Under the pieces are notes generated by a model, which saw only the letters and a list, made by a program, of their open reading frames with translations, did no database searches and was not told where the DNA came from. Positions 1,951 through 61,898 of a stretch of 61,915 bases of DNA are shown here, piece by piece (positions within the stretch are counted from its first letter, which is position 1; each line of letters begins with the position of its first letter). The DNA lies in the NCBI GenBank assembly GCA_041742075.1, contig JBGSJJ010000011.1, positions 1 through 61,915 of the forward strand, given 5' to 3'. Source of the stretch: Minisyncoccia bacterium. GTDB lineage: Bacteria > Patescibacteriota > Minisyncoccia > Phycocordibacterales > UBA918. Position numbers and translations under genes: made by a program.

Positions 1951-2083
1951 CTGCCGGTCAGGGAATCTCTCTTGTTACACAAGCAGTATACCTTTTGGCT
2001 ATATTTTCGCTACGCTCAATCTAGCTCAAAAGCTTTTCGAGCCCCTGACGCGAGTGACATATTAGTCACTCGCTATCTGGCAG
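1951..2083 (-). repeat. tRNA-tail mimic element, type 1 (Gln copy; candidate structured RNA)
   Basis: The minus strand reads, in order: CTGCCAG (anti-acceptor), hairpin GCGAGTGAC-taatat-GTCACTCGC, GTCAGGG (anti-T-stem), CTCGAAAAG, P2 CTTTTG...CAAAAG, GTATACTG, hairpin CTTG-TGTAA-CAAG, then CCCTGACCGGCAG. That last segment copies the tRNA-Gln 3' end with one change. Confidence 0.8.
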
Positions 2084-17246: not shown

Positions 17247-17275
17247 GAGTCAGACTTTTGTCTGGCTTTTAATTT
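17247..17275 (+). terminator. Rho-independent terminator after tRNA-Leu(CAA)
   Basis: AGTCAGAC-tttt-GTCTGGCT followed by TTTTAATTTT. Confidence 0.65.
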
Positions 17276-17279
17276 TGTT

Positions 17280-17377
17280 GGAGGGGGTTGAAAACCTTTT
17301 GAGATAGATTTGACTGAAAGGAAAATATATCCAAAAGGTGTACTGAAGTAGTAAACTTCGACCCCCTCCCGAGGCAC
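17280..17377 (+). repeat. tRNA-tail mimic element, type 1 (Leu-CAA copy 1)
   Basis: GGAGGGGGTTGAA (antisense of the T-loop/T-stem), P2 CCTTTTG...CAAAAGG, GTGTACTGA, hairpin GAAGT-agtaa-ACTTC, then TTCGACCCCCTCCCGAGGCACAAA. The last segment is 24 nt identical to the tRNA 3' end. Confidence 0.85.
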
Positions 17378-17440
17378 AAATTGACAAGTCGTAATTAATG
17401 GTGAATCGGGAGGCACAGCTTTTTTGCTAAAAAAAGCGTT

Positions 17441-17520
17441 GTGCGGGGTCGAAGCCGTTGCCAGTTGCCTGCAACGTCAACGGGTACTGAAACTGTAAGT
17501 TTCGACCCCCTCCCGAGGCT
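17441..17520 (+). repeat. tRNA-tail mimic element, type 1 (Leu-CAA copy 2, short core)
   Basis: GTGC-GGGGTCGAA, P2 CCGTTG...CAACGG, GTACTGA, hairpin GAAAC-TGTAA-GTTTC, then the tail CGACCCCCTCCCGAGGCT (one mismatch to the tRNA). Confidence 0.8.
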
Positions 17521-19579: not shown

Positions 19580-19636
19580 CCAAATGCCCTCTTTCGCCTA
19601 CTATTACTGCCACGCATATTAAGCGTGAAGCAAATT

Positions 19637-19792
19637 GGACCTATAGTTCAGTGGTAAGAGATGTTCTGAAGAACACTCTTTCTGTCATCGTTCGCTCGGT
19701 CATGTGAGAGTAAACTCTCCCCGACCCTCGCTCACTCGACAGGAGAATGCCTAGGTTTCAAATACAAGATATAGTGATGTAATAAAAATTCA
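19637..19792 (+). repeat. tRNA-like 5' mimic upstream of tRNA-Trp (a copy of the acceptor 5' strand and D-arm, followed by hairpins). Not a functional tRNA.
   Basis: GGACCTATAGTTCAGTGGTAAGAGA versus GGGCCTATAGTTCAGTGGTAGAATG of tRNA-Trp. The would-be anticodon arm is TGTTC-tgaa-GAACA (4-nt loop). Also present: hairpin GAGAG-taaa-CTCTC, long-range TTCTGTC/GACAGGA pairing, and TAGGTTT able to pair with the 5' strand. Confidence 0.6.
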
Positions 19793-19906: not shown

Positions 19907-19912
19907 TTATTT

Positions 19913-20023
19913 TGCGAGGTCCACGAGGATTCGAAAAGCTTTTGAGATAGATTTGACTGAAAGGAAAATATATCCAAAAGGTATACTGGTCATGTAATGA
20001 CCGAAACTCCTCGTGGGCCCGCA
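19913..20023 (+). repeat. tRNA-tail mimic element, type 1 (Trp copy)
   Basis: TGCGAGGTCCACGAGGA is a near-complete antisense of the tRNA-Trp 3' end. It is followed by TTCGAAAAG, a core 44 nt identical to the Leu-CAA copy, TATACTG, hairpin GGTCA-TGTAA-TGACC, then TCCTCGTGGGCCCGCA (identical to the tRNA tail). Confidence 0.85.
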
Positions 20024-20096: not shown

Positions 20097-20278
20097 GCTA
20101 CTGCGGGAGCCGGAGCGGTGTGAGCTTGCGAACCGCGAGGCGGGGTCGCGAGCGCGAGTGGCGACGAGCGACTTGTGACCGCAAGGGAGGTCCACGAGGA
20201 TTCGAAAAGGTTAACTAATATTTTGTGACGCAGGAGCAAAAATATTGATAACCTGTACTGATACTGTAAGAATCGAAA
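20097..20278 (+). repeat. Variant tail-mimic element: inverted copy of the preceding tail, a GC-rich junction module and a type 1-like core, but no 3' tail
   Basis: GCTACTGCGGG (20097-20107) is the reverse complement of CCCGCAGTAGC (20018-20028). It is followed by AGCCGGAGCGGTGTGAGCTTGCGAACCGCGAGGCGGGG, then GGTCCACGAGGATTCGAAAAGG, P2 GGTTA...TAACC and TGTACTGA...TGTAA. Confidence 0.65.
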
Positions 20279-23294: not shown

Positions 23295-23545
23295 ATGCGC
23301 ATGCTCGGGTGGCAGAGTAGAAACAAATAGTTTTCTTTCTACTTGTAAATGACGAGCGATCTGAGTTTACAAAGCAGTGAGTCATAAACTCAAAACAACA
23401 TATAAAGTACAACTTAATAACTATGCGTCGATGGCAGATTTAAAGTAAACTGCTTTACTTTAAATCAAAAGCTGAGCATAATGCGAGTTTACGAGCTAGT
23501 GCGAAATAAACTCAAATGTACAATGTCTACAATTGAATAATAACA
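23295..23545 (+). repeat. Two tandem units of about 125 bp upstream of tRNA-Tyr, each beginning with a copy of the tRNA 5' end
   Basis: Unit A starts ATGCGCATGCTCGGGTGGCAGAG and unit B starts ATGCGTCGATGGCAGA; the tRNA context is ATGCGTCGATGGCGGA. Both units carry a variable first hairpin, then GAGTTTA...TAAACTC, then AAA..TACAA..AATAA. Confidence 0.7.
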
Positions 23546-23547
23546 AT

Positions 23548-23631
23548 GCGTCGATGGCGGAGTGGTCAATCGCAACAGACTGTAAATCTGTCGGACATCG
23601 TCCTACGAAGGTTCGAATCCTTCTCGGCGCA
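23548..23631 (+). tRNA. tRNA-Tyr (anticodon GTA), class II
   Basis: Acceptor GCGTCGA/TCGGCGC, stem ACAGA/TCTGT, loop CTGTAAA, long variable arm, T-arm GAAGG-TTCGAAT-CCTTC. The terminator ATACCC...GGGGTATTTT follows. Confidence 0.9.
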
Positions 23632-23728
23632 CTTTTTAAAATACCCTTATTTATAGGGGTATTTTGTTGAGACAGAACAACTGGTTAGAACCTTTGCTAT
23701 ATTTAATCTTTTGGACTAAGATTTGGAC

Positions 23729-24382
23729 ATGAAAAGTGATTACCAAGAAAAACTCACCTCCCTATCCTCTCACGTTTCTAAAACTCTATTAAAATGGCAG
23801 GGTTTTAAAAAAAGAAGAAACGCATTCAATCGAAAATTGGACGGCGGAATAGTCCAAATAATAAGTTTCCAAGCTGGCAGTTACGAGCCATTTGCTATAG
23901 ACGTCCCAAACATGAACTACTTCCCTAACAGTTTATATGGAAAGTTTACAATCAACTTAGGAATATACATTGATGATTTACAAATTTTCATGCATGGTAA
24001 GAAACCAAAAGATTTTGTAAACGAATACGATTGCCAATTGAGAACGAGAGCTTCACACTTAGTTACCTCAACAGATGAATGGATTTCAATTGATAAAGAT
24101 TTCGATAAATTATCGAAAGAAACTACTAATCTAATTGAAAAATATGCACTACCTTTTCTAGATAGGTTTAATTCAAGAGAAAAAATAGAAGAATATTTTA
24201 AAACTGAAGGGACTACATTAACTAATATCCCTTTGGCATATTTAGCAATAATGTGCCATAAAGATGGTAACAATGAAGCAAGTTCTTCCTACATGAAAAA
24301 ACACATCGACTCAATCGTAAATCATGAAGGTCACAAAGAATATATGTTTGCGTTGGCTAAAAAACTTGGTCTGGATATTTAA
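23729..24382 (+). CDS. hypothetical protein (217 aa), AT-rich; the N-terminus resembles DUF4304-type proteins
   Basis: LLKWQGFKKRRNAFNRKLDGGIVQIISFQ follows the GFKK-x-GN-x-F-x-R...I-x-FQ pattern I recall for DUF4304 (from memory, unverified). The ORF is bracketed by GGTTAGAAC (23683-23691) and GTTCTAACC (24424-24432). Confidence 0.5.
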   Translation: MKSDYQEKLTSLSSHVSKTLLKWQGFKKRRNAFNRKLDGGIVQIISFQAGSYEPFAIDVPNMNYFPNSLYGKFTINLGIYIDDLQIFMHGKKPKDFVNEYDCQLRTRASHLVTSTDEWISIDKDFDKLSKETTNLIEKYALPFLDRFNSREKIEEYFKTEGTTLTNIPLAYLAIMCHKDGNNEASSSYMKKHIDSIVNHEGHKEYMFALAKKLGLDI

Positions 24383-24440
24383 CAAAATTTGGTAGAAAAC
24401 AGTAATCTGACTTAATAATCGCAGTTCTAACCTCTAGCAG

Positions 24441-24490
24441 TCCTGTGCACTTTTTAAAAACGAGCATCCACATTTGTGGGTGCCGTTTTT
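24441..24490 (+). repeat. Degenerate copy of the tRNA-Tyr tail plus downstream TTTTTAAAA and a terminator hairpin
   Basis: TCCTGTGCACTTTTTAAAAA compares with TCCTTCTCGGCGCACTTTTTAAAA at the tRNA, followed by GCATCCACA-ttt-GTGGGTGC and TTTTT. Confidence 0.6.
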
Positions 24491-24494
24491 ATTA

Positions 24495-24630
24495 GTGTGC
24501 CGAGAGTGAGTGACTCAATGTCACTCACGTAAAGATTCGAAAACCTTGCCTACTATTTTATGACGTTAGGAAATAAAATAGTGACAAGGTGTACTGAAGC
24601 TGTAAGCTTCGAAACTCCTTCTCGGCGCAC
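24495..24630 (+). repeat. tRNA-tail mimic element, type 1 (Tyr copy)
   Basis: GTGTGCCGAGA (anti-acceptor), hairpin GTGAGTGAC-tcaat-GTCACTCAC, GATTCGAAAA, P2 ACCTTG...CAAGGT, GTGTACTGA, hairpin GAAGC-TGTAA-GCTTC, then CGAAACTCCTTCTCGGCGCAC. Confidence 0.85.
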
Positions 24631-24635
24631 ATAAC

Positions 24636-24664
24636 TTGACAATACACTAGAAATGGTGTATTGT
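24636..24664 (+). promoter_or_regulatory. sigma70-like promoter (TTGACA, 17-nt spacer, TATTGT) 6 nt after the duplicated tail
   Basis: TTGACA 24636-24641, TATTGT 24659-24664. It points at ORF 24847-25236. Confidence 0.55.
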
Positions 24665-24846
24665 TTTGCATAAATCTAATCAGTATGGAGTCTGCTATGA
24701 GGTATCCCAGATAGCGGCTTCGGCTGCTTATTTTGTTCTTTTTCTTTCAAAAATCAAACCGCAACCCGCTCCCTATCAAATTCGTGATGGACCGCGTTCG
24801 GCCATAACCGCCGACCACCCATAACGAAGAAAGCTAGGAGCACAAC

Positions 24847-25236
24847 ATGAAGAAGCGTAACGAACATGGTCTGACTCAAAGTCAGGTTCGCAGGTTAGCG
24901 AATATTCTTTTGGAACTCCAGGGTGCACTCGAATCAGTGCGCAATGGGAACGGAACAACCGCCGACGTAGAGCAGTGGAAGAAACCCCTGTTCGAAAGAA
25001 CATCAGCGATTCTGGGTGAAAACCTAACGCGATACCATCAGACCATTGCCGCCCTCAGGCGACATGGAATCGTGGACGAGTTTCAGGAAGAAGCTGACCG
25101 AGAGGAAGCCGTGAAGCGTGATTTCAGGATGAGGCGTGCCGAACGATTCGGTCTCCCCTACGACTCCAAAGATAGCGCTTTCCTGGATAGGTACGAAGCG
25201 GAAGCAAATTGGCTCGACCAGTACGGTTCAAGCTAA
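24847..25236 (+). CDS. hypothetical protein (129 aa), visibly GC-richer
   Basis: Intact ORF with AGGAG 6 nt upstream. A hairpin and T-run follow at about 25271-25300. Confidence 0.5.
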   Translation: MKKRNEHGLTQSQVRRLANILLELQGALESVRNGNGTTADVEQWKKPLFERTSAILGENLTRYHQTIAALRRHGIVDEFQEEADREEAVKRDFRMRRAERFGLPYDSKDSAFLDRYEAEANWLDQYGSS

Positions 25237-25329
25237 TCGTAACCTCAATTATCAACAAGTCGTCACTCAAACGGAAAAGACCGTTTGGAGGGACGGCTTT
25301 TTCTATTGCCTCCTCACCACACAAAAGTG

Positions 25330-25354
25330 TCGAACCAGCTCCATCCCGGCGCAC
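25330..25354 (+). repeat. Further copy of the tRNA-Tyr tail (TCGAACCAGCTCCATCCCGGCGCAC) followed by TTTTAAAAAA and a terminator
   Basis: Same tail + TTTTAAAA + hairpin organisation as at 23612-23675 and 24441-24490. Confidence 0.6.
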
Positions 25355-25514
25355 TTTTAAAAAATGACCTTGTTTTGCAAGGACATTTTTCTTAGGAAAA
25401 GATAGAGTTCAAAAAATACTATATCCGTGCCATTTTTCTATAAATATTAAAGACTTGATCTTCTTGGATCCTTGTGTATAATTTGGATATCACGACGAAG
25501 AGGGTTCCGAACGG

Positions 25515-26040
25515 TTAATTGCCTAAGGAGCCCTTTTCTTTTGCTATCTTTTTTCTTACATCTAAATAGGACAGATCTGCAAAAAATTCAGCGCCCAATA
25601 CTTTATACAAAGACGACGCATAGCGTTGATTCGGAAACAATATTTTCTCCAGCTTATTCTCTTCCAGAAGAAAATCGACAAGCATTTTATAATCACCATC
25701 TCCAGACACAAGAACGATTTTAGCAAACGTGTCATCCTTATATACTTTTTTCATTATCGAAAAGATAATGTCAGAATCAACATTACCTTTCTTTTTACCA
25801 ATCATAGCTGAATTATGTTGGCGAAATACTAGAATAAATCCAGCCGACTGGATCTCTTCGTATAATTCTTGAGACCTTTCACTAATCTTGGACGTAACCG
25901 AGGAAATAGTATGCCTGATCAACATCGTACTTCTCCCTAAGGAAAACCCTAAATCTTGCCAAATCAACCTTCCACGAAGGTTCTCTCTTAGTGGTTCCCA
26001 TAAATAGATTCTGTCCGTCAACGTAAGTGAGATTTTTCAT
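25515..26040 (-). pseudogene. NYN/LabA-like (PIN-like) domain gene split by a 1-nt frameshift near 25885
   Basis: The N-terminal part lies in ORF 25882-26136 (MKNLTYVDGQNLF...YYFLGYVQD*). The C-terminal part lies in ORF 25515-26021 (...SQELYEEIQSAGFILVF...VLVSGDGDYKMLVDFL). Confidence 0.6.
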
Positions 26041-26059
26041 TGTAAAATTATACCAAACA

Positions 26060-26264
26060 AAGGTTCGAACCTTCTCCAATCTATACAGATTCCTTACAGG
26101 AACTGTCCACTCATTGGACCTTATGTTTCGCTTCACTTACAAAAGTTCCTCAATGAGTCTTGCGACAAGCTCCCAGCTTGTCTCACTATTCAGGTTGTAT
26201 GATATTTTTGCAAAATATCGACAACTTCTTGCGACAGTTTCCCAAACTGTCTCACCCGGCGCAC
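26060..26264 (+). repeat. tRNA-Tyr T-arm copy, two tandem type 2 modules and an acceptor-tail copy
   Basis: AAGGTTCGAACCTTCTCC; then CCTTACAGGAACTGT, P2 ACTCATTG...CAATGAGT, CTTGCGA, hairpin CAAGCT-ccc-AGCTTG and TCTCA; then hairpin TTGTATGATATTTT/AAAATATCGACAA, CTTGCGA, hairpin CAGTTT-ccc-AAACTG, TCTCA and CCCGGCGCAC. Confidence 0.75.
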
Positions 26265-26267
26265 TAC

Positions 26268-26298
26268 TTGACAAACTCCTTAAATAGTGTATTATAAT
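26268..26298 (+). promoter_or_regulatory. sigma70-like promoter (TTGACA ... TATTATAAT) 4 nt after the duplicated tail
   Basis: TTGACA 26268-26273. TATTAT 26290-26295 overlaps TATAAT 26293-26298. It points at the glycoside hydrolase gene. Confidence 0.55.
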
Positions 26299-26364
26299 GA
26301 AAATTCCTTCTGCCGTGAAATATTTGTCCTCACACAACGTCTTCGAACGGAATTGGTAATAACT

Positions 26365-27393
26365 ATGTCAAAATCGCTTAAAATCACCCTTTTTATCGTG
26401 CTTCTCTCAGCTTTAATAGCGGGGTCATTTTTTGTATGGATTAATTCCCTTAAAGCCGAACCGGGCGATATTGTCTGGGGAGTCACCTTCTCAGACAGCC
26501 AAGCCGAGTACCTAGGACTTAATGCAGACGAAACCTACTCGGCAATCATTAACGATCTTGGGGCTAAGCAGATTAAACTCCATGTCAACTGGAACGCAAC
26601 CGAACCAGAAGCTGGCGTACTTGATTTCAAGACTCTTGATAGACGCGTAAAAGAAGCCGAGGCAAACGATGTGAAGCTTATTATCGTTATTGGTATGAAA
26701 ACTGGGCGTTGGCCAGAATGCCACACTCCAGAGTGGTTTATGGATGTTCCTACAGACGAGCGTCAGGATATAGTGATTCAATATGTGCGCACCATAGTGG
26801 GAAGGTACCACGACTCTAAAGCAATTGAATACTGGCAAATCGAAAACGAACCGTTTCTTCAGTTCGGTACCTGTCCAAAGTGGTATTACGACCAAGGCAC
26901 AACTATGCTTGAAGCGGAAGTTGCTGCGGTACGTTCACTTGACCCAGCTCGTAAGATAATTGTTTCTGAGTCTGGTGAGCTTTCGACCTGGACCAAGGCA
27001 GCGGGTATTGCTGACGTAGTCGGAGTGACTATGTATCGTAGCAGTTGGGACGCTACAGAAAAAACGTTCGGTATCAATCCTTACACTTTCCTCGCGCCAG
27101 AATTTTACTCAGCCAAGTCAGCCTTCATTGAAAATACCTACGGCAAGCCGGTCTTTAGTATAGAACTGCAGGCAGAGCCCTGGGCTTCTCGTGGCCTGGC
27201 TGACGCCAGTCTGGCAGAACAAGACCAATCGATGAACGTCGAACTTTTCAAAGAGAATATCGAATTTGCGAGGGAAGCCGGACTTGATGCCTACTATTTT
27301 TGGGGAGCAGAGTGGTGGTACTGGATGAAGGTAAAACACAACCAACCAGAAATCTGGAACCATGCACAAGAATTGTTTACAGAGCAAAACTAG
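26365..27393 (+). CDS. membrane-anchored clan GH-A (GH5-like) glycoside hydrolase
   Basis: N-terminal TM anchor (MSKSLKITLFIVLLSALIAG), acid/base motif WQIENEP, and a later ELQAEPW. Confidence 0.65.
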   Translation: MSKSLKITLFIVLLSALIAGSFFVWINSLKAEPGDIVWGVTFSDSQAEYLGLNADETYSAIINDLGAKQIKLHVNWNATEPEAGVLDFKTLDRRVKEAEANDVKLIIVIGMKTGRWPECHTPEWFMDVPTDERQDIVIQYVRTIVGRYHDSKAIEYWQIENEPFLQFGTCPKWYYDQGTTMLEAEVAAVRSLDPARKIIVSESGELSTWTKAAGIADVVGVTMYRSSWDATEKTFGINPYTFLAPEFYSAKSAFIENTYGKPVFSIELQAEPWASRGLADASLAEQDQSMNVELFKENIEFAREAGLDAYYFWGAEWWYWMKVKHNQPEIWNHAQELFTEQN

Positions 27394-27468
27394 CAGAAAG
27401 TTTTAAAATCACTCAAATAGTTTTAAAAAATACACTTGGTCAAAACCAAGTGTATTTTAGTAACAGTA

Positions 27469-28056
27469 CTAATTCCTTAGGGCACGGAGTGCCTCCCCCC
27501 ACTTCACCAGTTGTTTTGCCATGGACTGCGCTTTTTCAGAATACTTGGCAAACATTGCTTCTGGATCAGTTCCGCCAAAATACATCGGGAAATAATCACT
27601 TCCTTCAAAGTGAATCGCTTCACGTATTGGCGCCATTTGGAGCTCAATTGCGTTTAGTCGCAATTGCTCGACTGCTCGAGCGCCACCCACACTACCGTAC
27701 GCTACAAACGCAATCGGCTTATTGCCCCACTCTTGATAGACCCAATCCAAGGCATTTTTAAGCACTGCTGAAGTCCCTCGGTTGTATTCCGGAGTAACAA
27801 CGACGAACGCTTCGCCCTCAGCAATTTTTTTAGTAAAGCGGGCTACCGCGTCATTAGTATATGGTTCTTGTTTAAAGCTCGGACTAACGGAGCTGTCAAA
27901 AAACGGCATTTCATAATCGCGTAAATCGAGCACCTCTACCTCAACGTTGTCGTGCTTTTTAAATTCTTCCGCAATCCACGTAGCGGCTTTGTCGCTAAAC
28001 CTCCCTTCGCGGGTACTTCCGGCTATAACTTTGATCACTAATTTTTTACTTTCCAT
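27469..28056 (-). CDS. NAD(P)H-dependent FMN reductase family protein
   Basis: VIAGSTREGRFSDK, VVVTPEYNRGTSAVLKNALDW. Confidence 0.85.
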   Translation of the reverse strand: MESKKLVIKVIAGSTREGRFSDKAATWIAEEFKKHDNVEVEVLDLRDYEMPFFDSSVSPSFKQEPYTNDAVARFTKKIAEGEAFVVVTPEYNRGTSAVLKNALDWVYQEWGNKPIAFVAYGSVGGARAVEQLRLNAIELQMAPIREAIHFEGSDYFPMYFGGTDPEAMFAKYSEKAQSMAKQLVKWGEALRALRN

Positions 28057-28098
28057 ATATTCAAAAACAAATTTTACTAAGACATACATGGTACCATT

Positions 28099-28162
28099 TA
28101 CTACTTTACAAAGTAAAGTAGTAACATATTAGAGAACAGTTACTTTACATTGTACAGTAACT
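28099..28162. promoter_or_regulatory. Candidate HxlR operator(s): two palindromes sharing TACTTTAC half-sites in the divergent promoter region
   Basis: TACTACTTTAC-aaa-GTAAAGTAGTA (28099-28123) and AGTTACT-n11-AGTAACT (28138-28162). Confidence 0.5.
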
Positions 28163-28187
28163 AATTTAATGCTAGGCTACACAAATC

Positions 28188-28487
28188 ATGCCAAGGAAAA
28201 CTACCCACAAGACGTGTGCGATTGCTAAAACTGTCTCACTCCTCTCTGACAGCTGGACGATGCTCATTATGCGTGCCTTAACAGAAAGTCCGAAGAGATT
28301 TTGTGAACTTGAGCGCTGGCTCGATGGCATCTCGACCCGTACCCTTACCCTCAAGCTAAAAAAACTGCAAGCTGACGGCATGCTTAAAAAGTCGAAAGAC
28401 GGTGTGTACTCAGCAACGAAAAAAGGAATGGGGTTACAGATTATCGAGGAAGCCATGATTAAGTACAGTACTCTGTATTTACGATAG
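28188..28487 (+). CDS. HxlR-family winged-helix transcriptional regulator
   Basis: CAIAKTVSLLSDSWTMLIMRAL...PKRFCELERWLDGISTRTLTLKLKKLQADGML. Confidence 0.85.
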   Translation: MPRKTTHKTCAIAKTVSLLSDSWTMLIMRALTESPKRFCELERWLDGISTRTLTLKLKKLQADGMLKKSKDGVYSATKKGMGLQIIEEAMIKYSTLYLR

Positions 28488-28585
28488 TTTAAAACATATC
28501 CTAAAATGTTTTGACGAATTGTCAGAAGCCAGATTATACCGTAGGCTAGTAGTTAGGAAGTTGTACCCCGAAGAGGAACCGGCCC

Positions 28586-29101
28586 ATGCGTACTCTCTTG
28601 ACGTACCTTACACTCTGCTTTTCTCTTGCATGGAGCGTCGCTTATGCCAGAACCCGTGAGGAAGACTGTGTCTTAAAGCTGGGCAGTGATATCCAGTCTC
28701 TCTCATCTAGACCTCAGATAGAAGGGTTCATAGAACGGCACATTGATTTCATGTACATTGTAAAGGAAGCCTACCGCAGAAATGCCAGTGCTAGTCAACC
28801 TGGTTGGGACTCACTGCCCAAAAGCCGGCAAAAGCTGTACAAAGAAGCCGCCATTGTTGAGATTGCCTCTGACATCATTCCGAGCCTGCAGGGTCAGAAT
28901 ATCGGCTCAATTAACCGGCTCACCACTTCAAATGGTAAAGCTGGGGGTCGGACAACGAAACGTGTATCAGGCCTAGTTGGCCGGACCGAAACAATTGTCG
29001 TACTATGGCCAAACGAATGCCGAATCGTGGATGCGAAATATAGTGAGTTTTCAGTTATAGGCAACATACAAGACAGGTTTGCTGGAATTAGATTTGACTG
29101 A
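28586..29101 (+). CDS. secreted hypothetical protein (171 aa), visibly GC-richer
   Basis: Signal peptide MRTLLTYLTLCFSLAWSVAYA. A TTGACG ... TATAC promoter-like site lies at about 28521-28550, and the terminator at 29108-29138 follows. Confidence 0.5.
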   Translation: MRTLLTYLTLCFSLAWSVAYARTREEDCVLKLGSDIQSLSSRPQIEGFIERHIDFMYIVKEAYRRNASASQPGWDSLPKSRQKLYKEAAIVEIASDIIPSLQGQNIGSINRLTTSNGKAGGRTTKRVSGLVGRTETIVVLWPNECRIVDAKYSEFSVIGNIQDRFAGIRFD

Positions 29102-29107
29102 ACCGCT

Positions 29108-29138
29108 GGCCGGAGCTTTGCTCCGGCCTCTTTTTTTT
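29108..29138 (+). terminator. Rho-independent terminator
   Basis: GGCCGGAGC-tttg-CTCCGGCC followed by TCTTTTTTTT. Confidence 0.8.
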
Positions 29139-29170
29139 AAAGAACCAAAACTGCTATACTGGCGGTACCT

Positions 29171-30733
29171 ATGGAAAAATACATCCGACCTATTCTATTC
29201 ACCACTGTTTTTCTTACTGGCGCTGGGGTACTGATTATGGAAGTCTCGGCAGTCCGTATGTTGGCCCCCTACTTTGGTTCGTCGCTCTATGTGCTGTCTA
29301 GTGTCCTCACGGTAGTTCTGTTTGCTTTAGCGCTTGGCTACTACTACGGCGGAAAGTTGTCTGACCGCTTTCCGTACCACCTTCCGTTATACGTGCTAAT
29401 TACGCTCGGGGGTCTTTCGTTACTTCTCATGACAGTCGTGGCTTCTTATACACTCCCAAACACAGCTGTCATGATGCCTCTTCTCCTCGGCCCACTTATG
29501 TACTCGATTGTGTTCTTCTTTCTTCCAGCTTTTTTACTTGGAATCGATTCCCCGTTTGTGATAAAACTTCTTTCACAAGAAACTACTGAAGCGGAGTCAG
29601 GGAGCGTCGTGGGGGCAACTTTTTTTTGGAGCACAGCCGGAAGCATTAGCGGTAGTCTCCTTTCAGGGTTTTTTCTCATCCCTACATTTGGACTCATTAT
29701 GACCATGACCATGACAGGTATAGTGATTGTTGCACTTGGTATTGGTGGCGGACTCGTACTGAGGACCATACTGCGTAAGCGAAAAAACTACGATCAGAGA
29801 AATGAGCTCCGGATGAAACCATTTATCCTTGGTGTGATTACACTACTCATCATCGTCACCTATCTTTTATTTACAAACCCCGCTTATGCCGATTCACTGT
29901 ACGCTAAAGACGGGTACTATGCCCACATCAATATATTTGACGGTAGTTACTTCGGCCAGACAGTGCGTTTCTTAAAGCAAGATACCAACAATTCCTCAGC
30001 AATATATCTCGAAAGTGACGAGTTGGTATATCCCTACACCCAGTTTAGCCACGTGTATAAGGAACTATTCCCCGAGCCAAAAAACTTTTTAATGCTGGCC
30101 GGTGGTGCCTACACTATTCCGCGAGCTCTCAACCAAGCCATGCCTGAACTCGAGATTGACGTCGTAGAAATTGAACCAGAGCTATTTGAACTGGCACATA
30201 CCTATTTTAAACTTCCGATTACTGACAAAATCCAAAACCACACCATGGACTCCCGTTCCTACTTAGCTCGAACAGACAGAACGTATGATTATATTTTTGT
30301 GGATACATTCTCAAGCGGTCACTTCGTACCACCACACTTAGTTACCAAAGAATTTTTGGAGCTCATGAAAGCGAGGCTTTCACCAAACGGTATTGTGGTA
30401 ATGAATTTTATCGCTTCTCGCCCAGTTGCTACCGAACGCTCACTGACTGGTTCGTTTACCAAAACCGTAGCCAGTGTGTTCTCTAATTTCTCTATCTATA
30501 CGATGCGTCGTGAAATACCCGAACAGCCCCAAAACCTCATGTATGTCATGAGAAATGGAGATGAATCTCTTGAACTGAGCGCAAGTAGTAGTGTACGCAT
30601 CAAAAACAGACAGGTACTGCTCTCAACTTTAAAACTTGACCCTAACTCACTTGTATCAACGTCAGACATTGTTTTTACTGATGACCACGCACCAGTAGAA
30701 ACGCTCCTGTTAAAGGAGCGTTTCCGGTTCTAA
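29171..30733 (+). CDS. fused polytopic membrane domain and spermidine-synthase-like aminopropyltransferase/methyltransferase
   Basis: About 6-8 N-terminal TM helices, then LMLAGGAYTIPRAL and YDYIFVDTFSS. Confidence 0.75.
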   Translation: MEKYIRPILFTTVFLTGAGVLIMEVSAVRMLAPYFGSSLYVLSSVLTVVLFALALGYYYGGKLSDRFPYHLPLYVLITLGGLSLLLMTVVASYTLPNTAVMMPLLLGPLMYSIVFFFLPAFLLGIDSPFVIKLLSQETTEAESGSVVGATFFWSTAGSISGSLLSGFFLIPTFGLIMTMTMTGIVIVALGIGGGLVLRTILRKRKNYDQRNELRMKPFILGVITLLIIVTYLLFTNPAYADSLYAKDGYYAHINIFDGSYFGQTVRFLKQDTNNSSAIYLESDELVYPYTQFSHVYKELFPEPKNFLMLAGGAYTIPRALNQAMPELEIDVVEIEPELFELAHTYFKLPITDKIQNHTMDSRSYLARTDRTYDYIFVDTFSSGHFVPPHLVTKEFLELMKARLSPNGIVVMNFIASRPVATERSLTGSFTKTVASVFSNFSIYTMRREIPEQPQNLMYVMRNGDESLELSASSSVRIKNRQVLLSTLKLDPNSLVSTSDIVFTDDHAPVETLLLKERFRF

Positions 30734-30754
30734 GTATGAATGAGAGGTGACTAC

Positions 30755-37134: not shown

Positions 37135-37154
37135 CAGCAACGAAGTTGATGAAT

Positions 37155-37254
37155 GGCGGGAATTGAAGACCTTGCGAGACAAGTTTGACTGAAAGGAAAA
37201 CATGTCCACAAGGTGTACTGAAACTGTAAGTTTCAATTCCCGCCCCGGCCTCAG
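37155..37254 (+). repeat. tRNA-tail mimic element, type 1 (Cys copy; minimal, no intervening terminator)
   Basis: GGCGGGAATTGAA (exact antisense of TTCAATTCCCGCC), P2 ACCTTG...CAAGGT, GTGTACTGA, hairpin GAAAC-TGTAA-GTTTC, then TTCAATTCCCGCCCCGGCCTCAG. The last segment is 23 nt identical to 37115-37137. Confidence 0.85.
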
Positions 37255-37650: not shown

Positions 37651-37852
37651 GTGCGTGAGCTTGCGTGGGGTGGACTTGAAAACCTTGTGTGACAGATTCG
37701 ACCAGAGGAGAATATGTCCACAAGGTGTACTGAACCTGTAAGGTTCAAGTCCTCTTCTTACAGAAGCTGTATACCTTATCAGTATTCCTCGCTTCGCTCA
37801 GAATACTAGATAAGGTCTTGCAAAGTGCTCCCAGCACTTTTCACCCGCGCAC
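37651..37852 (+). repeat. tRNA-tail mimic element, type 1 (Leu-TAG copy 1), with its tail split by a nested type 2 module
   Basis: GTGCG-TGAGCTTGCG-TGGGGTGGACTTGAA, P2 ACCTTGTG...CACAAGGT, GTACTGA, hairpin GAACC-TGTAA-GGTTC, CAAGTCCTCT, then an 88-nt insert, then CCCGCGCAC. Confidence 0.85.
37756..37843 (+). repeat. type 2 module nested between the T-stem copy and the acceptor copy of the duplicated Leu-TAG tail
   Basis: TCTTACAGAAGCTGTAT, P2 ACCTTATCAGTATT...AATACTAGATAAGGT, CTTGCAA, hairpin AGTGCT-ccc-AGCACT, TTTCA. Same 88-nt length and same first 22 nt as 45644-45731. Confidence 0.8.
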
Positions 37853-37880: not shown

Positions 37881-38025
37881 GTGCGCGGAGCAAACGATAG
37901 TTTGCGGAGAGGACTTGAAAAGATGGAGTATATCGCACGGAGTGAAATAGTCTGGGAGACTATTTCATCGAGTACGATACGACATCTGTACCGCTCCTGT
38001 AAGGAGAAAGATTCCTCTCCCACAC
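37881..38025 (+). repeat. tRNA-tail mimic element, type 1 (Leu-TAG copy 2, divergent core, degenerate tail)
   Basis: GTGCGCGG, hairpin GCAAAC-gata-GTTTGC, GGAGAGGACTTGAAAA (exact antisense of the tRNA 3' end), P2 GATG...CATC, TGTACCG, hairpin CTCC-TGTAA-GGAG, then ATTCCTCTCCCACAC. Confidence 0.7.
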
Positions 38026-45479: not shown

Positions 45480-45643
45480 TTCTTTAAGTATACCTTGTCT
45501 GTTCGTAAAAAAACTGCACCGGGTGTGTAAAGAGCTTTGCTTATATAGTTTGCCCGACACGGATAGTGCCAAGCTCCCGCAGGACGCAAACGCGGTTCCT
45601 CCCTAGGCATATTTTCCTAAGCAAGACGCCAAGCGCCATTTCT

Positions 45644-45731
45644 TCTTACAGAAGCTGTATACCTTGTCAGTATTTTTCATTCTTCAAAATACTAGGCAAG
45701 GTCTTGCGAAGTGACATTGAATCACTTCTCA
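45644..45731 (+). repeat. type 2 module, orphan copy with no tRNA nearby
   Basis: TCTTACAGAAGCTGTAT, P2 ACCTTGTCAGTATT...AATACTAGGCAAGGT, CTTGCGA, hairpin AGTGA-cattgaa-TCACT, TCTCA, then CCCTGGTGGG. Confidence 0.75.
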
Positions 45732-59980: not shown

Positions 59981-60052
59981 GGTCCCATCGTCTAGCGGCT
60001 AGGACACTTGGTTTTCATCCAAGAAACCGGAGTTCGATTCTCCGTGGGATCA
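59981..60052 (+). tRNA. tRNA-Glu (anticodon TTC)
   Basis: GGTCCCA-TC-GTCT-AGCGGCTA-GGAC-A-CTTGG-TTTTCAT-CCAAG-AAAC-CGGAG-TTCGATT-CTCCG-TGGGATC-A. Confidence 0.9.
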
Positions 60053-60789
60053 CAAACAGCAACAAATCGGTTCTCAAAGGCTTCAAATCCTTTTTTAACC
60101 TTGTATTGCAACACATCTTGAGCGACATAAAGTTCTGAAAAGATAACTCGAATGATTTTCTCCTTTTCGTTTGGTTTTGCGAAATCATAAACAAGTACAA
60201 CATCTTTTATGAGTTCTGAAAGTTTCTCTATATCTTTCATTGTCTCTCGCATAGCAACGTCAGATACATCTTCACCATCTTTGAGTGCAGATAATTCTGT
60301 TTCGAGCTTCTCTTCTTCAGCAACGTATTCCTCTGGCGTATACACTCCTGATTTCAAGAGAGGGATTTTATTTGTACGAAGGTAACCTAGGTCCTCACGT
60401 ATCTTTTTCTTCTTTCGTTCCATTTGGTCAAAACCTTTTTGACGCTTTTCTTCAAGTAGTGCGATCTCAGTACCAGCACGTGCATCCATTTCGGCAATTT
60501 CATCTTCAGTAAAATAAAGATTTGACAGTAACCCTTTCACTTCTTTATCAATAAAAGCAAAGTTAAAGTTTTTGAATGTATTCTCACAGCCACTAATACA
60601 ACGGGCATTGTAATATTGAATACCTTTCTTCGGATATGGCGTGTACACACGACTACAGTGAGCACACCGAATAATGCCTCGAAGTGGCAGGTCGAGCTTT
60701 TCGGTATAATGAATGCTCACTTTCTTTTTTTTGAGGACTGCCTGTACATCATCAAACAACTCTTGGGTCACCAATGGCTCGTGACTGAT
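59992..60789 (-). pseudogene. large serine recombinase, C-terminal part only (recombinase domain tail, zinc ribbon, coiled coil). The N-terminal catalytic domain was removed by the IS3 insertion.
   Basis: The reading frame is open up to the IS boundary (ISHEPLVTQELFDDVQ...). It contains CAHC...C..GC zinc-ribbon cysteines and a long charged coiled-coil. The 3' end reads into tRNA-Glu. Confidence 0.7.
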
Positions 60790-60852
60790 TGAAAGGTACC
60801 CCTTTCTTAAGACAACAATTCTAAGTATTATAACTAAGCAAATACAAAGAAT

Positions 60853-61128
60853 ATGGCAAAACAGGGCTACCGAATTTCAACCGAAATAAAAGAAGAAATC
60901 ATCAAAAAGATAAAGCACGAAGGTTTAAGTGTGATGGACGCCGCCAAACAATACGGCATCAGTGATAAAACCATCTATAACTGGCTTGGTACCAAAGCGC
61001 GGGGTACGGTGAGTATCCTTGAACACAACAAAGTGAAGAAAGAAAACGAGCAGTTAAAACAGATCATCGGTGACCTCACCATCAAAATGTCCATGGACGC
61101 AAAAAAAGGGCTCTCCAAGGTTTGGTAA
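60853..61128 (+). CDS. IS3-family transposase OrfA (HTH and leucine zipper)
   Basis: MAKQGYRISTEIKEEIIKKIKHEGLSVMDAAKQYGISDKTIYNW. Confidence 0.85.
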   Translation: MAKQGYRISTEIKEEIIKKIKHEGLSVMDAAKQYGISDKTIYNWLGTKARGTVSILEHNKVKKENEQLKQIIGDLTIKMSMDAKKGLSKVW

Positions 61129-61898
61129 TTGGTTTCTCAAGAACACACCAGTACTATCACCATAGACAGCCAGCCAAGGACTGGGCGACCAAGCAGCTCA
61201 TAGAGATGGCTCTGCGTGATCACCCCAGCTATGGCCACAAACGTCTGGCACTCCACCTCAAACTAAACAAGAAACGTATCCTGCGAGTGATGCAGCTATT
61301 CGGTATTAAACCATACCGCCGGATCACTCCTAAACTCTATAAAAAGCCTAAGGACAGCGTCTTTCCTAACCTTCTAATGACGGAAACACCCCTTGGTCCC
61401 GGTGATATCTATGCGAGTGATTTCACCTATCTGAAGTACTACGGACGCTGGGTGTATGTGGCCACAATACTTGATGTGTTCACGCGGGAGATTGTGGGTG
61501 TCTCGGTATTAACGACTCACCACACCCAGCTGGTATTAAACGCGCTTGGTGCAGCCGTACTCAATCGTCCACCGCCTCGGATCATCCACTCTGATCAAGG
61601 GAGTGAGTATACTTCAGCAGACTATACTAACTTGGTGCAGTCTCTCAAGATTAAGCAGTCTATGAGTGCGCCGGGGTGCCCTTGGGAGAATGGGTACCAG
61701 GAGTCCTTTTATAAAGGCTTCAAACTTGATCTAGGTGACCCTAATCGGTTTGAGACACTTGGTGAACTAGTGGCAGCGGTGTATCAAACGATTAATTACT
61801 ATAATCAAAAGCGGATACACTCAGCCCTGAAACTACCACCGCGGTTGTTTAAAGAGCAGTTTGAGGTATCATTAATGGACTTAGAAAAGGTGTCTTAA
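61101..61898 (+). CDS. IS3-family transposase OrfB (DDE/rve core), expressed by a -1 frameshift at A AAA AAA G (61101-61108)
   Basis: DFTYLKY...HSDQGSEYTS...ENGYQESFYKGFK (D, D, E spacing). The -1 frame from 61101 reads KKRALQGLVIGFSRTH. Confidence 0.85.
   Translation, partial: KKRALQGLVIGFSRTHQYYHHRQPAKDWATKQLIEMALRDHPSYGHKRLALHLKLNKKRILRVMQLFGIKPYRRITPKLYKKPKDSVFPNLLMTETPLGPGDIYASDFTYLKYYGRWVYVATILDVFTREIVGVSVLTTHHTQLVLNALGAAVLNRPPPRIIHSDQGSEYTSADYTNLVQSLKIKQSMSAPGCPWENGYQESFYKGFKLDLGDPNRFETLGELVAAVYQTINYYNQKRIHSALKLPPRLFKEQFEVSLMDLEKVS

Follow-up and report, generated by a model that had tools for sequence, protein, structure and literature searches.

The genomes of Patescibacteria are tiny, recognised mobile elements are few in them, and how their genes are gained and lost is poorly understood. 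A locus on a contig of a Minisyncoccia bacterium (JBGSJJ010000011.1, positions 1 to 61,915, referred to as a whole as the window) raises this question in a concrete form. Behind the gene for tRNA-Tyr, copies of the 3' end of the tRNA recur, and between them lie genes, terminators and a structured non-coding element. What has assembled such an array behind a tRNA gene? We consider it probable that the array grew by serine-integrase-type accretion of integrase-less mini-cassettes at the tRNA-Tyr 3' end. The window itself is a chromosome segment of a Patescibacteria (candidate phyla radiation, CPR) bacterium. It carries the core genes dnaX, dus, serS, dprA, miaA, parB, ftsA, ftsZ, clpB, infB and rbfA, and its closest DNA matches are Candidatus Saccharibacteria genomes with about 65-79% identity.

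The initial annotation of the locus, made from the letters alone, had described the tRNA-Tyr locus as punctuated by copies of the tRNA tail. A repeat search of the window supports this description, as four further copies were detected 3' of the tRNA. The tRNA and the copies are positioned as follows.

23548-23632, plus strand: tRNA-Tyr(GTA), called by ARAGORN and matched in Rfam with 61.4 bits; CCA is not encoded
23612-23632, plus strand: 3' end of tRNA-Tyr from the T-loop to the discriminator plus C, the anchor and putative attB-type arm
23618-23641, plus strand: tail copy 1, which is tRNA-Tyr itself
24443-24462, plus strand: tail copy 2, degenerate, in register with the other copies
24616-24639, plus strand: tail copy 3
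25340-25363, plus strand: tail copy 4
26257-26276, plus strand: tail copy 5
26057-26077, plus strand: T-arm part of tail copy 5, ACAAAGGTTCGAACCTTCTCC, from the repeat search
26255-26264, plus strand: acceptor part of tail copy 5, CCCGGCGCAC, from the repeat search and the 8-mer scan

The exact 8-mer CGGCGCAC occurs five times on the plus strand of the 61.9-kb window, and four of these five occurrences (23625, 24623, 25347 and 26257) fall within 2.7 kb. The T-arm part of copy 5 reaches farther 5' into the tRNA sequence than any other copy. A unit consisting of tail, T-run and hairpin is present three times (23625-23665, 24443-24490 and 25347-25395), and two of the three hairpins were called as terminators. 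TTTT(T)AAAA and a hairpin follow three of the tail copies, and TTGACA promoter-like sites follow the other two. Among 184 tRNAs of related loci, a tail copy was found downstream of 61 and upstream of two.

A mirror image of these 3' tail copies was observed at tRNA 5' ends. A second copy of the first 14 nt of tRNA-Tyr and of the roughly 60 nt preceding them is located 123 nt farther upstream (23363-23438 versus 23485-23561, the tRNA-Tyr copy being located at 23415-23438), and a like 5'-end copy is present 156 nt upstream of tRNA-Trp (about 19630-19660 versus 19793). Copies of the first 14 nt were detected upstream of 16 of the 184 tRNAs and downstream of none.

Counted outward from the tRNA, the putative units of the array would be a DUF4304 cassette, an ORF-less terminator with the structured element, a cassette with the orphan open reading frame (ORF) ORF2, and a unit comprising an NYN-domain gene and a small-RNA-like region. 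Their parts are the following.

23633-23670, plus strand: TTTTTAAAA and hairpin with arms 23638-23650 and 23653-23665 (inverted repeat), now the terminator of the tRNA and read as the start of the DUF4304 cassette
23729-24382, plus strand: cargo gene 1, encoding a DUF4304 protein of 217 aa (Pfam, E = 7e-19)
24415-24450, plus strand: 3' end of the DUF4304 cassette, ..GCAGTTCTAACCTCTAGCAGTCCTGTGCAC, first described as a degenerate tail, putative attP-type arm
24451-24494, plus strand: TTTTTAAAA and terminator (stem 24464-24483), first part of the ORF-less structured-element unit
24495-24630, plus strand: structured element, first called type 1, matched by covariance model R1 at 24517-24611 (65 bits, E = 9e-13)
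24631-25354, plus strand: whole ORF2 cassette, conserved in the related loci L138, L139 and L140
24636-24664, plus strand: promoter-like site of the ORF2 cassette, TTGACA, 10/12 matches (promoter scan)
24847-25236, plus strand: ORF2, 129 aa, orphan, predicted helical (ORF list; AlphaFold2, AF2)
25281-25296, plus strand: terminator of the ORF2 cassette (terminator scan)
25327-25354, plus strand: tail-like end of the ORF2 cassette, putative attP-type arm
25355-25395, both strands: TTTTAAAAAA and bidirectional terminator, stem 25368-25382 (terminator scan)
25455-25482, plus strand: promoter-like site before the small-RNA-like region (promoter scan)
25455-25545, plus strand: conserved small-RNA-like region including this promoter-like site, convergent with the NYN gene
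25515-26040, minus strand: NYN-domain gene, split by a frameshift into 25515-26021 and 25882-26040 (Pfam NYN, E = 3.9e-9)
26078-26254, minus strand: inverted structured element, first described as type 2 modules (26158-26186 and 26227-26255), plus a second partial copy
26268-26295, plus strand: promoter-like site upstream of the glycoside hydrolase gene, TTGACA, 16 nt spacer, TATTAT, 11/12 matches
26365-27393: glycoside hydrolase gene, GH10/GH42-like (Pfam)

Do these segments behave as units? Relatives of the locus were compared to answer this question, including 14 metagenome loci with the identical 23-nt tRNA-Tyr tail (related loci carry L numbers here). Three of the 14 (L137, L125 and L127) contain the tRNA, a palindromic terminator (T), an inverted tail (X'), the core of the structured element and a direct tail (X), followed by a promoter and by no other unit. 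L130 and most of the other identical-tail loci show the terminator only and then unrelated genes. L137 and L125 have pilin-like genes upstream in common with the window. Homologues of ORF2 are rare, only six being present in 5.8 billion proteins, and four genomes, those of the window, L138, L139 and L140, carry the ORF2 unit as a discrete module, with protein identities to the window of 84%, 71% and 66%, respectively, for the latter three. In L140, the ORF2 cassette is preceded by tRNA-Tyr, T and a nested structured element, without the DUF4304 cassette. In L139, it is followed by a different small cassette with a 42-aa ORF. In L138, three tail-like ends bound a 4.8-kb segment, the ORF2 cassette and T-X'-core-X with a 128-aa ORF, after which clpB follows.

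The boundaries of the units are sharp. In the alignments, homology of the ORF2 cassette starts a few bases past one ...GCAC, at the promoter, and ends exactly at the next. The last 30 nt of the DUF4304 cassette, GCAGTTCTAACCTCTAGCAGTCCTGTGCAC to 24450, equal the end of the 42-aa-ORF cassette of L139 (31/32); the similarity stops at GCAC, and the cargoes of the two cassettes are unrelated. A tail-like end also follows a DUF4304 homologue with 63% identity in L141, and the NYN gene with the small-RNA-like region adjoins the structured element at tRNA-Glu in L103, a Saccharibacteria genome. Cassette order and content vary among relatives, the presence or absence of units varies even with the same tRNA-Tyr tail, and the cassette-end sites are conserved. 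Because homology is bounded at GCAC and the same cassettes and ends recur with other neighbours, the units are, as judged from these comparisons, modular, bounded at the last encoded base of the tRNA and shuffled among relatives. The proposal of serially and separately acquired units is thereby strengthened, as the locus is not invariant and syntenic but differs in content among identical-tail relatives.

Short-read contigs from near-identical strains (L120-L123, Logan assemblies) break between the DUF4304 gene and ORF2, near the terminator before the structured element. The pattern agrees with assembly breaks induced by repeats, and such arrays are therefore probably under-represented in metagenome assemblies. 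As a further observation on the extent of the locus, the window carries the NYN gene, the glycoside hydrolase gene, an FMN reductase gene, an HxlR gene, a 171-aa ORF and an MFS/spermine-synthase gene before clpB, and the single 128-aa ORF of L138 (6050-6650) stands there in place of window positions 26300-30750. The variable region may thus extend about 4.5 kb past the coordinates first assigned to it.

Which enzyme could have joined the units to the tRNA? The geometry of the cassette ends points to a large serine integrase. In all ten ORF-cassette ends measured, including that of the DUF4304 cassette, the distance from the T-loop-like motif (TCGAA or TCTAA) to the terminal base is 25 nt; in tRNA-Tyr genes it is 20 nt, so that the cassette ends are longer by 5 nt. 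The right ends of larger islands at tRNA-Glu measure 25 nt in L038 and 24 nt in L067, compared to 20 nt in their tRNA-Glu. Tail copies 2 and 4, taken at first for simple degenerate copies, are instead tail-like ends of about 29 nt with a T-loop-like motif, and the cassette ends constitute a separate sequence class. In the sites of large serine integrases, the distal motif bound by the zinc-ribbon domain is located 5 bp farther out in attP than in attB (PMC3783163). As the +5 shift equals this published offset, the cassette ends are read as attP-type arms.

Relatives have integrases of this type at tRNA 3' ends. In L126, one of 542 aa (phrog_95, E = 1e-63) adjoins and overlaps the identical-tail tRNA-Tyr, and in L067 a 525-aa enzyme abuts tRNA-Glu, at the start of a 5.4-kb island. 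In the window, 59992-60774 on the minus strand encodes a C-terminal fragment of a large serine integrase that overlaps the 3' end of tRNA-Glu, and 59981-61898 is a decayed island at this other tRNA. An IS3-family element (HTH_Tnp_1 at 60853-61128, rve at 61122-61898) truncates the fragment.

Taken together, we propose the following scheme. The region 3' of tRNA-Tyr would be an integration hot spot. Conservative site-specific recombination, crossing over at the final encoded tRNA bases (...GCAC|), would have added integrase-less cassettes of 0.2-0.9 kb there serially. A tail-like recombination arm would form the 3' end of each cassette; each gene cassette also has its own terminator, and the ORF2 cassette has a promoter-like site in addition. 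The most likely recombinase would be a trans-acting large serine integrase. The cassette ends would represent attP-type left arms and the tRNA tail an attB-type left arm, with strand exchange at or beside GCAC, so that an insertion would leave the intact tRNA on the left and the arm of the incoming cassette on the right. GCAC is common to all junctions; the bases that follow are also shared in some, as TTTTTAAAA in the window and GCGT in L139. The incoming cassette may rebuild an attB-like site and thereby permit repeated insertion, which is suggested by the direct repeats flanking cassettes, GCACTTTTTAAAA for the DUF4304 cassette and GCACGCGT for the L139 cassette. The former is common to the 23633-23670 region and to 24447-24459 in the repeat search, and the latter is common to the cassette junctions of L139. 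A second landing site, used by the ORF2 cassette, appears to have been provided by the tail copy of the structured element, because this cassette directly follows the element tail and is itself followed by TTTTAAAAAA and a terminator. In a cassette circle, the junction would join the cassette end (e.g. ...CCTGTGCAC) to its own start, TTTTTAAAATACCC.

Several observations weigh against this scheme. No integrase is present in or beside the array, and the only one in the 62-kb window is the serine integrase fragment at the other tRNA. An attL site is not normally reused by serine integrases. Serial insertion therefore requires that the start of each cassette regenerates an attB-like right half, for which TTTTTAAAA is a plausible candidate. 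The island end of L067 is shifted by +4 and not by +5. The tail of the structured element has an attB-like spacing (+0 to +2), so that the origin of the element is not explained by the cassette mechanism. A codon-usage likelihood measure separates none of the cargo genes from background. Finally, neither an excised circle nor an empty site for the strain was observed, and the near-identical contigs L120-L123 are invariant, with the same cassette order in all of them according to exact-protein look-ups.

What, then, is the structured element? It was characterized with a covariance model, R1, built from 70 copies, which finds 12 copies in the window. The parts of the copy behind tRNA-Tyr and the R1 matches are listed here.

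24495-24506, plus strand: inverted tail
24507-24528, plus strand: inserted hairpin
24608-24630, plus strand: direct tail copy
1969-2060 (minus strand), 17268-17360, 17429-17504, 19911-20003, 20182-20275 and 24517-24611: first six R1 copies
26088-26184 (minus strand), 37143-37235, 37656-37747, 37752-37842 (minus strand), 37895-38008 and 45640-45728 (minus strand): second six R1 copies

The copy at 24495-24630 folds with -59.8 kcal/mol (z = -8.0), the elements of the window ranging from z = -4.3 to -8.0, and its core comprises the helices P2 and P3, the junction GTGTACTG and a TGTAA loop. The core consensus combines a long hairpin, P2 (CCTTTTGAG...CCAAAAGG), with the junction GTRTACTG and with P3, a short hairpin whose loop is YGTAA. 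The same construction of tRNA tail (X), palindromic terminator (T), inverted tail (X'), conserved core and direct tail (X) follows six of the window's nine tRNAs (Gln, Leu-CAA, Trp, Tyr, Cys and Leu-TAG), and this order is also present at tRNA-Tyr in L125, L137 and L140. Each copy reproduces the tail of its own upstream tRNA. Behind protein genes, X consists of the last codons and the stop codon of rplK or fusA, and the copy at 45640-45728 (minus strand) is of this protein-gene type. The closing helix P1 is thus formed by an inverted and a direct copy of the upstream gene end. Its pairing is stronger than that of mismatched partners (mean -17.7 versus -14.4 kcal/mol, p = 3e-8), which is a weak control for P1 as a general feature, as all copies contain T-loop-like sequence.

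The initial annotation had counted the tail copy of the type 1 element among the five that punctuate the array and had listed the type 2 modules as a separate type. The tail copy is a built-in part of a CPR-wide element that is found behind all tRNA isotypes and some protein genes, and thus not in itself a scar peculiar to this locus. The type 2 modules are an inverted copy of the type 1 element, matched by R1 at 26088-26184 on the minus strand (46.7 bits, E = 1e-8). The reverse complement of their hairpin, TCTTGC-stem-CTCCCAG-stem-TCAC, is found in many forward copies ('class b') as the 5' hairpin GGTGAG-stem-..GGGA-stem-GCAAGA. The inverted copy sits within tail copy 5 and separates the T-arm part from the acceptor part, and a like nesting is seen at 37752-37842 (minus strand) behind tRNA-Leu(TAG). 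In the Tyr and Gln elements, the inverted-tail arm contains a short conserved hairpin, GAGTGACTNAATGTCACTC, as an insertion where the acceptor and T-stem parts meet (24507-24528, and 2042-2065 on the minus strand). This hairpin is also present at 45709-45729 on the minus strand, as the 5' hairpin of the 45640-45728 copy. The nested insertions on the opposite arm of the element are located at the equivalent junction.

On a wider scale, at least 118 genome-contig stretches match a 24-nt core pattern, and almost all of them come from Patescibacteria, of many classes. Of 130 copies, 74 lie within 1.5 kb 3' of a same-strand tRNA of any isotype, usually at a distance of 90-130 nt. P3 covaries with 17-36 double compensatory changes per pair among the 70 sequences, and in P2 one pair changes in perfect step between T-A and G-C (54 to 16). 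In 118/128 copies, folding is more stable for the motif strand than for its complement, by 4 kcal/mol on average. As such a strand bias is the signature of G-U pairs, the element is probably single-stranded and acts as RNA. In Rfam, only the tRNAs of the window reach the gathering score, and nothing meaningful matches 24495-24630 or 26088-26184 with E up to 5. When the ORFs within 3 kb of the 130 copies are clustered, only housekeeping genes emerge, EF-G, NusG, L11, RbfA and ParB among others, and no conserved protein neighbour is found. In the literature, of which our coverage is incomplete, no earlier description of such a CPR element was found. Some identities were considered and rejected. 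By eye, the junction does not match the hammerhead core (no model search was made for this or other small ribozymes); retro-copying of mature tRNA does not fit copies that carry the post-discriminator base and flanks and not CCA; and TIGR-Tas arrays, with 36-nt dual-spacer RNAs, are unrelated.

With the element described, other origins of the array can be weighed. It was initially compared to an integron, and in a strict form this would mean folded single-strand sites, a dedicated recombinase, the tRNA tail as attI and the structured element as the site. The order of tail, cargo, inverted tail, core and tail would be the expected trace of integration by a folded hairpin site, and the attP of CTX phage and the attC of integrons, which are sites of this kind, leave such an integrated order. 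In the structured element, and only there, inverted and direct copies of the target likewise flank a short spacer and form a hairpin; it folds strongly in DNA as well as RNA form, and the position of the DUF4304 gene is exactly between the tRNA tail and the inverted tail. However, a tail remnant and a second terminator (24415-24494) part this gene from the inverted tail and mark it as a separate insertion, with the same pattern in L038 and L067. The spacer of the element, unlike that of CTX attP or attC, is a conserved and covarying three-helix core with RNA-like, strand-biased folding that fits G-U pairs, to our knowledge no cognate recombinase of the element has been described, and the ORF cassettes move without it. 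Their ends are not attC-like hairpins, as the folding of those of the DUF4304 and ORF2 cassettes does not exceed that of shuffled sequences on either strand (z = +1.2, +1.5, -1.5 and -1.2), and in this comparison the ORF-less structured element alone folds (z about -7). An IntI-type or other tyrosine recombinase was not found in the window ORFs scanned, among the matches listed (25 of 92 families in one scan, so that an unlisted short ORF could match); within about 7 kb on either side of the array, the genes are pilin-like, glycoside hydrolase, FMN reductase, HxlR, MFS/spermine synthase and ClpB genes. Nor does expression of promoterless cassettes from a common promoter fit, as promoter-like sites are present within the ORF2 cassette (24636-24664) and the small-RNA-like region of the NYN unit (25455-25482) and terminators separate the units. 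Without IntI or folded ends, and with promoter-like sites and terminators of its own, the array, anchored at a tRNA 3' end, is thus not an integron. The likeness is functional only and concerns the small, mostly single-gene cassettes, the conserved 3' recombination sites and the variable order and content, and we regard a true integron-like system as improbable.

A second explanation invokes no foreign DNA at all: local duplication and unequal homologous recombination could have made the tail copies, as proposed for E. coli tyrT, where short direct repeats of the tRNA 3' end are found behind the tRNA-Tyr gene. This precedent and the undistinctive codon usage of the cargo speak for it. The repeats of tyrT are tandem copies of one roughly 178-bp unit, whereas the segments between the tails of the array are mutually unrelated in the repeat search and hold unrelated genes, and RtT of Rfam matches neither at the gathering score nor up to E = 5. 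Moreover, the same cassettes and ends are present in other genomes with other neighbours, and the cassette ends, as their own sequence class, keep a constant spacing of +5 nt relative to the tRNA tail. The comparative sequence data thus already largely refute local duplication, which we consider very improbable. Alternatively, the tail copies could be no scars but selected RNA-level signals, punctuating transcripts for processing or stability in a tRNA-like manner by RNase P, RNase Z or the CCA-adding enzyme. The closing helix does reproduce the stacked acceptor and T-stem helix of its tRNA, P3 carries a T-loop-like UGUAA loop, and the structure is strand-specific and covarying. However, tail copies 2 and 4 are unfolded and have no 5' partner strand, promoters and terminators separate the units, the rplK and fusA copies use the end of the coding sequence and not tRNA sequence as helix, and identical cassette ends with different cargo are left without an account. 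This explanation, too, appears unlikely to us, slightly more so than the integron-like one. Serine-integrase-type accretion of cassettes therefore remains the reading that we prefer.

How does an array formed in this way compare to known systems? Among described systems, those nearest to it are tandem tRNA-gene islands such as the tycheposons of Prochlorococcus, in which partial tRNA copies part successive integrations and older units are pushed outward (10.1101/2020.12.28.424599). Islands of this class, Islander-type ones among them (PMC4383910), have an intact tRNA at one end and employ tyrosine or large serine recombinases. The array resembles them in its intact tRNA at one end, in partial tRNA copies that delimit units and in degenerate remnants. 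It differs in that its units are far smaller (0.2-0.9 kb, with one gene or none), none of them carries an integrase or replication genes, the boundary lies at the very end of the tRNA and not inside it, the host is a CPR bacterium, and one unit is a non-coding structured element. The integrase beside the tRNA, a hallmark of islands, is missing from the array; tRNA-Tyr of L126 and tRNA-Glu of L067 have one, and tRNA-Glu of the window has a fragment. With attP/attB sites of the LI integrase and other large serine integrases (PMC3783163) the array shares the 5-bp offset of the distal motif between cassette arm and tRNA arm, and such integrases abut tRNA 3' ends in relatives. In contrast to these systems, the cassettes lack an integrase, and reuse of the same site is abnormal for these enzymes.

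The cargo genes were said to differ markedly in base composition. Compared to 52 background genes (mean 46.6% GC, standard deviation 3.6), this applies to the DUF4304 gene (32.6% GC, z = -3.8, below 52/52 background genes) and the NYN gene (36.7% GC, z = -2.7), and thus to two of the three cargo genes. ORF2 (51.8% GC, z = +1.4), which is shifted in the direction opposite to that of the DUF4304 gene, lies within the background range, and codon usage is undistinctive. All three gene units end at terminators in the terminator scan. The promoters suggested at 24636-24664 and 26268-26298 were recovered as promoter-like sites with 10/12 and 11/12 matches; no convincing promoter was called upstream of the DUF4304 gene in the promoter scan. 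ORF2 matches no Pfam family, and its helical AF2 model (predicted local distance difference test, pLDDT, 74) has no significant match in the PDB. A kinship of ORF2 with the ORF behind tRNA-Gln was considered, and the two are unrelated. PADLOC and PHROGs return nothing for the DUF4304 protein or ORF2, and their sole result for the cargo is a marginal HEC-09 match for NYN. The calls of the NYN gene vary among near-identical contigs (96 + 52 aa in L120 versus 136 aa in L121), and a weak Rfam match to ctRNA_p42d at 25499-25544 (26.1 bits) is below the gathering score. The NYN gene and the convergent small-RNA-like region may constitute a toxin / antisense-RNA module.

Between the promoter-like site of the cassette and ORF2, a leader of about 180 nt (24665-24846) is conserved, with equivalents in L138 (5215-5413), L139 (30-208) and L140 (1440-1615). 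It contains a terminator-like hairpin at 24713-24728 with a T-run to 24738, which may be an attenuator or a small RNA.

Overall, the locus presents a concrete route of gene gain and loss in Patescibacteria, namely integrase-less single-gene units of less than 1 kb stacked at a tRNA 3' end. The cassette ends with the geometry of serine-integrase attP arms lead to testable predictions regarding the enzyme, the place of the crossover and circular intermediates. The array itself is best read as an accretion of the tRNA-island type, and the linked structured element is the more novel part. It is abundant and new to Rfam, is found behind tRNAs of every isotype phylum-wide and copies the end of the upstream gene. 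Although we think this improbable, the element might be what gives a recombination system its specificity, whether it serves as a folded site or as an RNA displaying both strands of the gene end. If this were true, one conserved scaffold would mark tRNA 3' ends as landing pads for integrase-less cassettes, and a phylum with reduced genomes would possess, in the element system, a tRNA-anchored analogue of integrons or of bridge-RNA-guided recombination.

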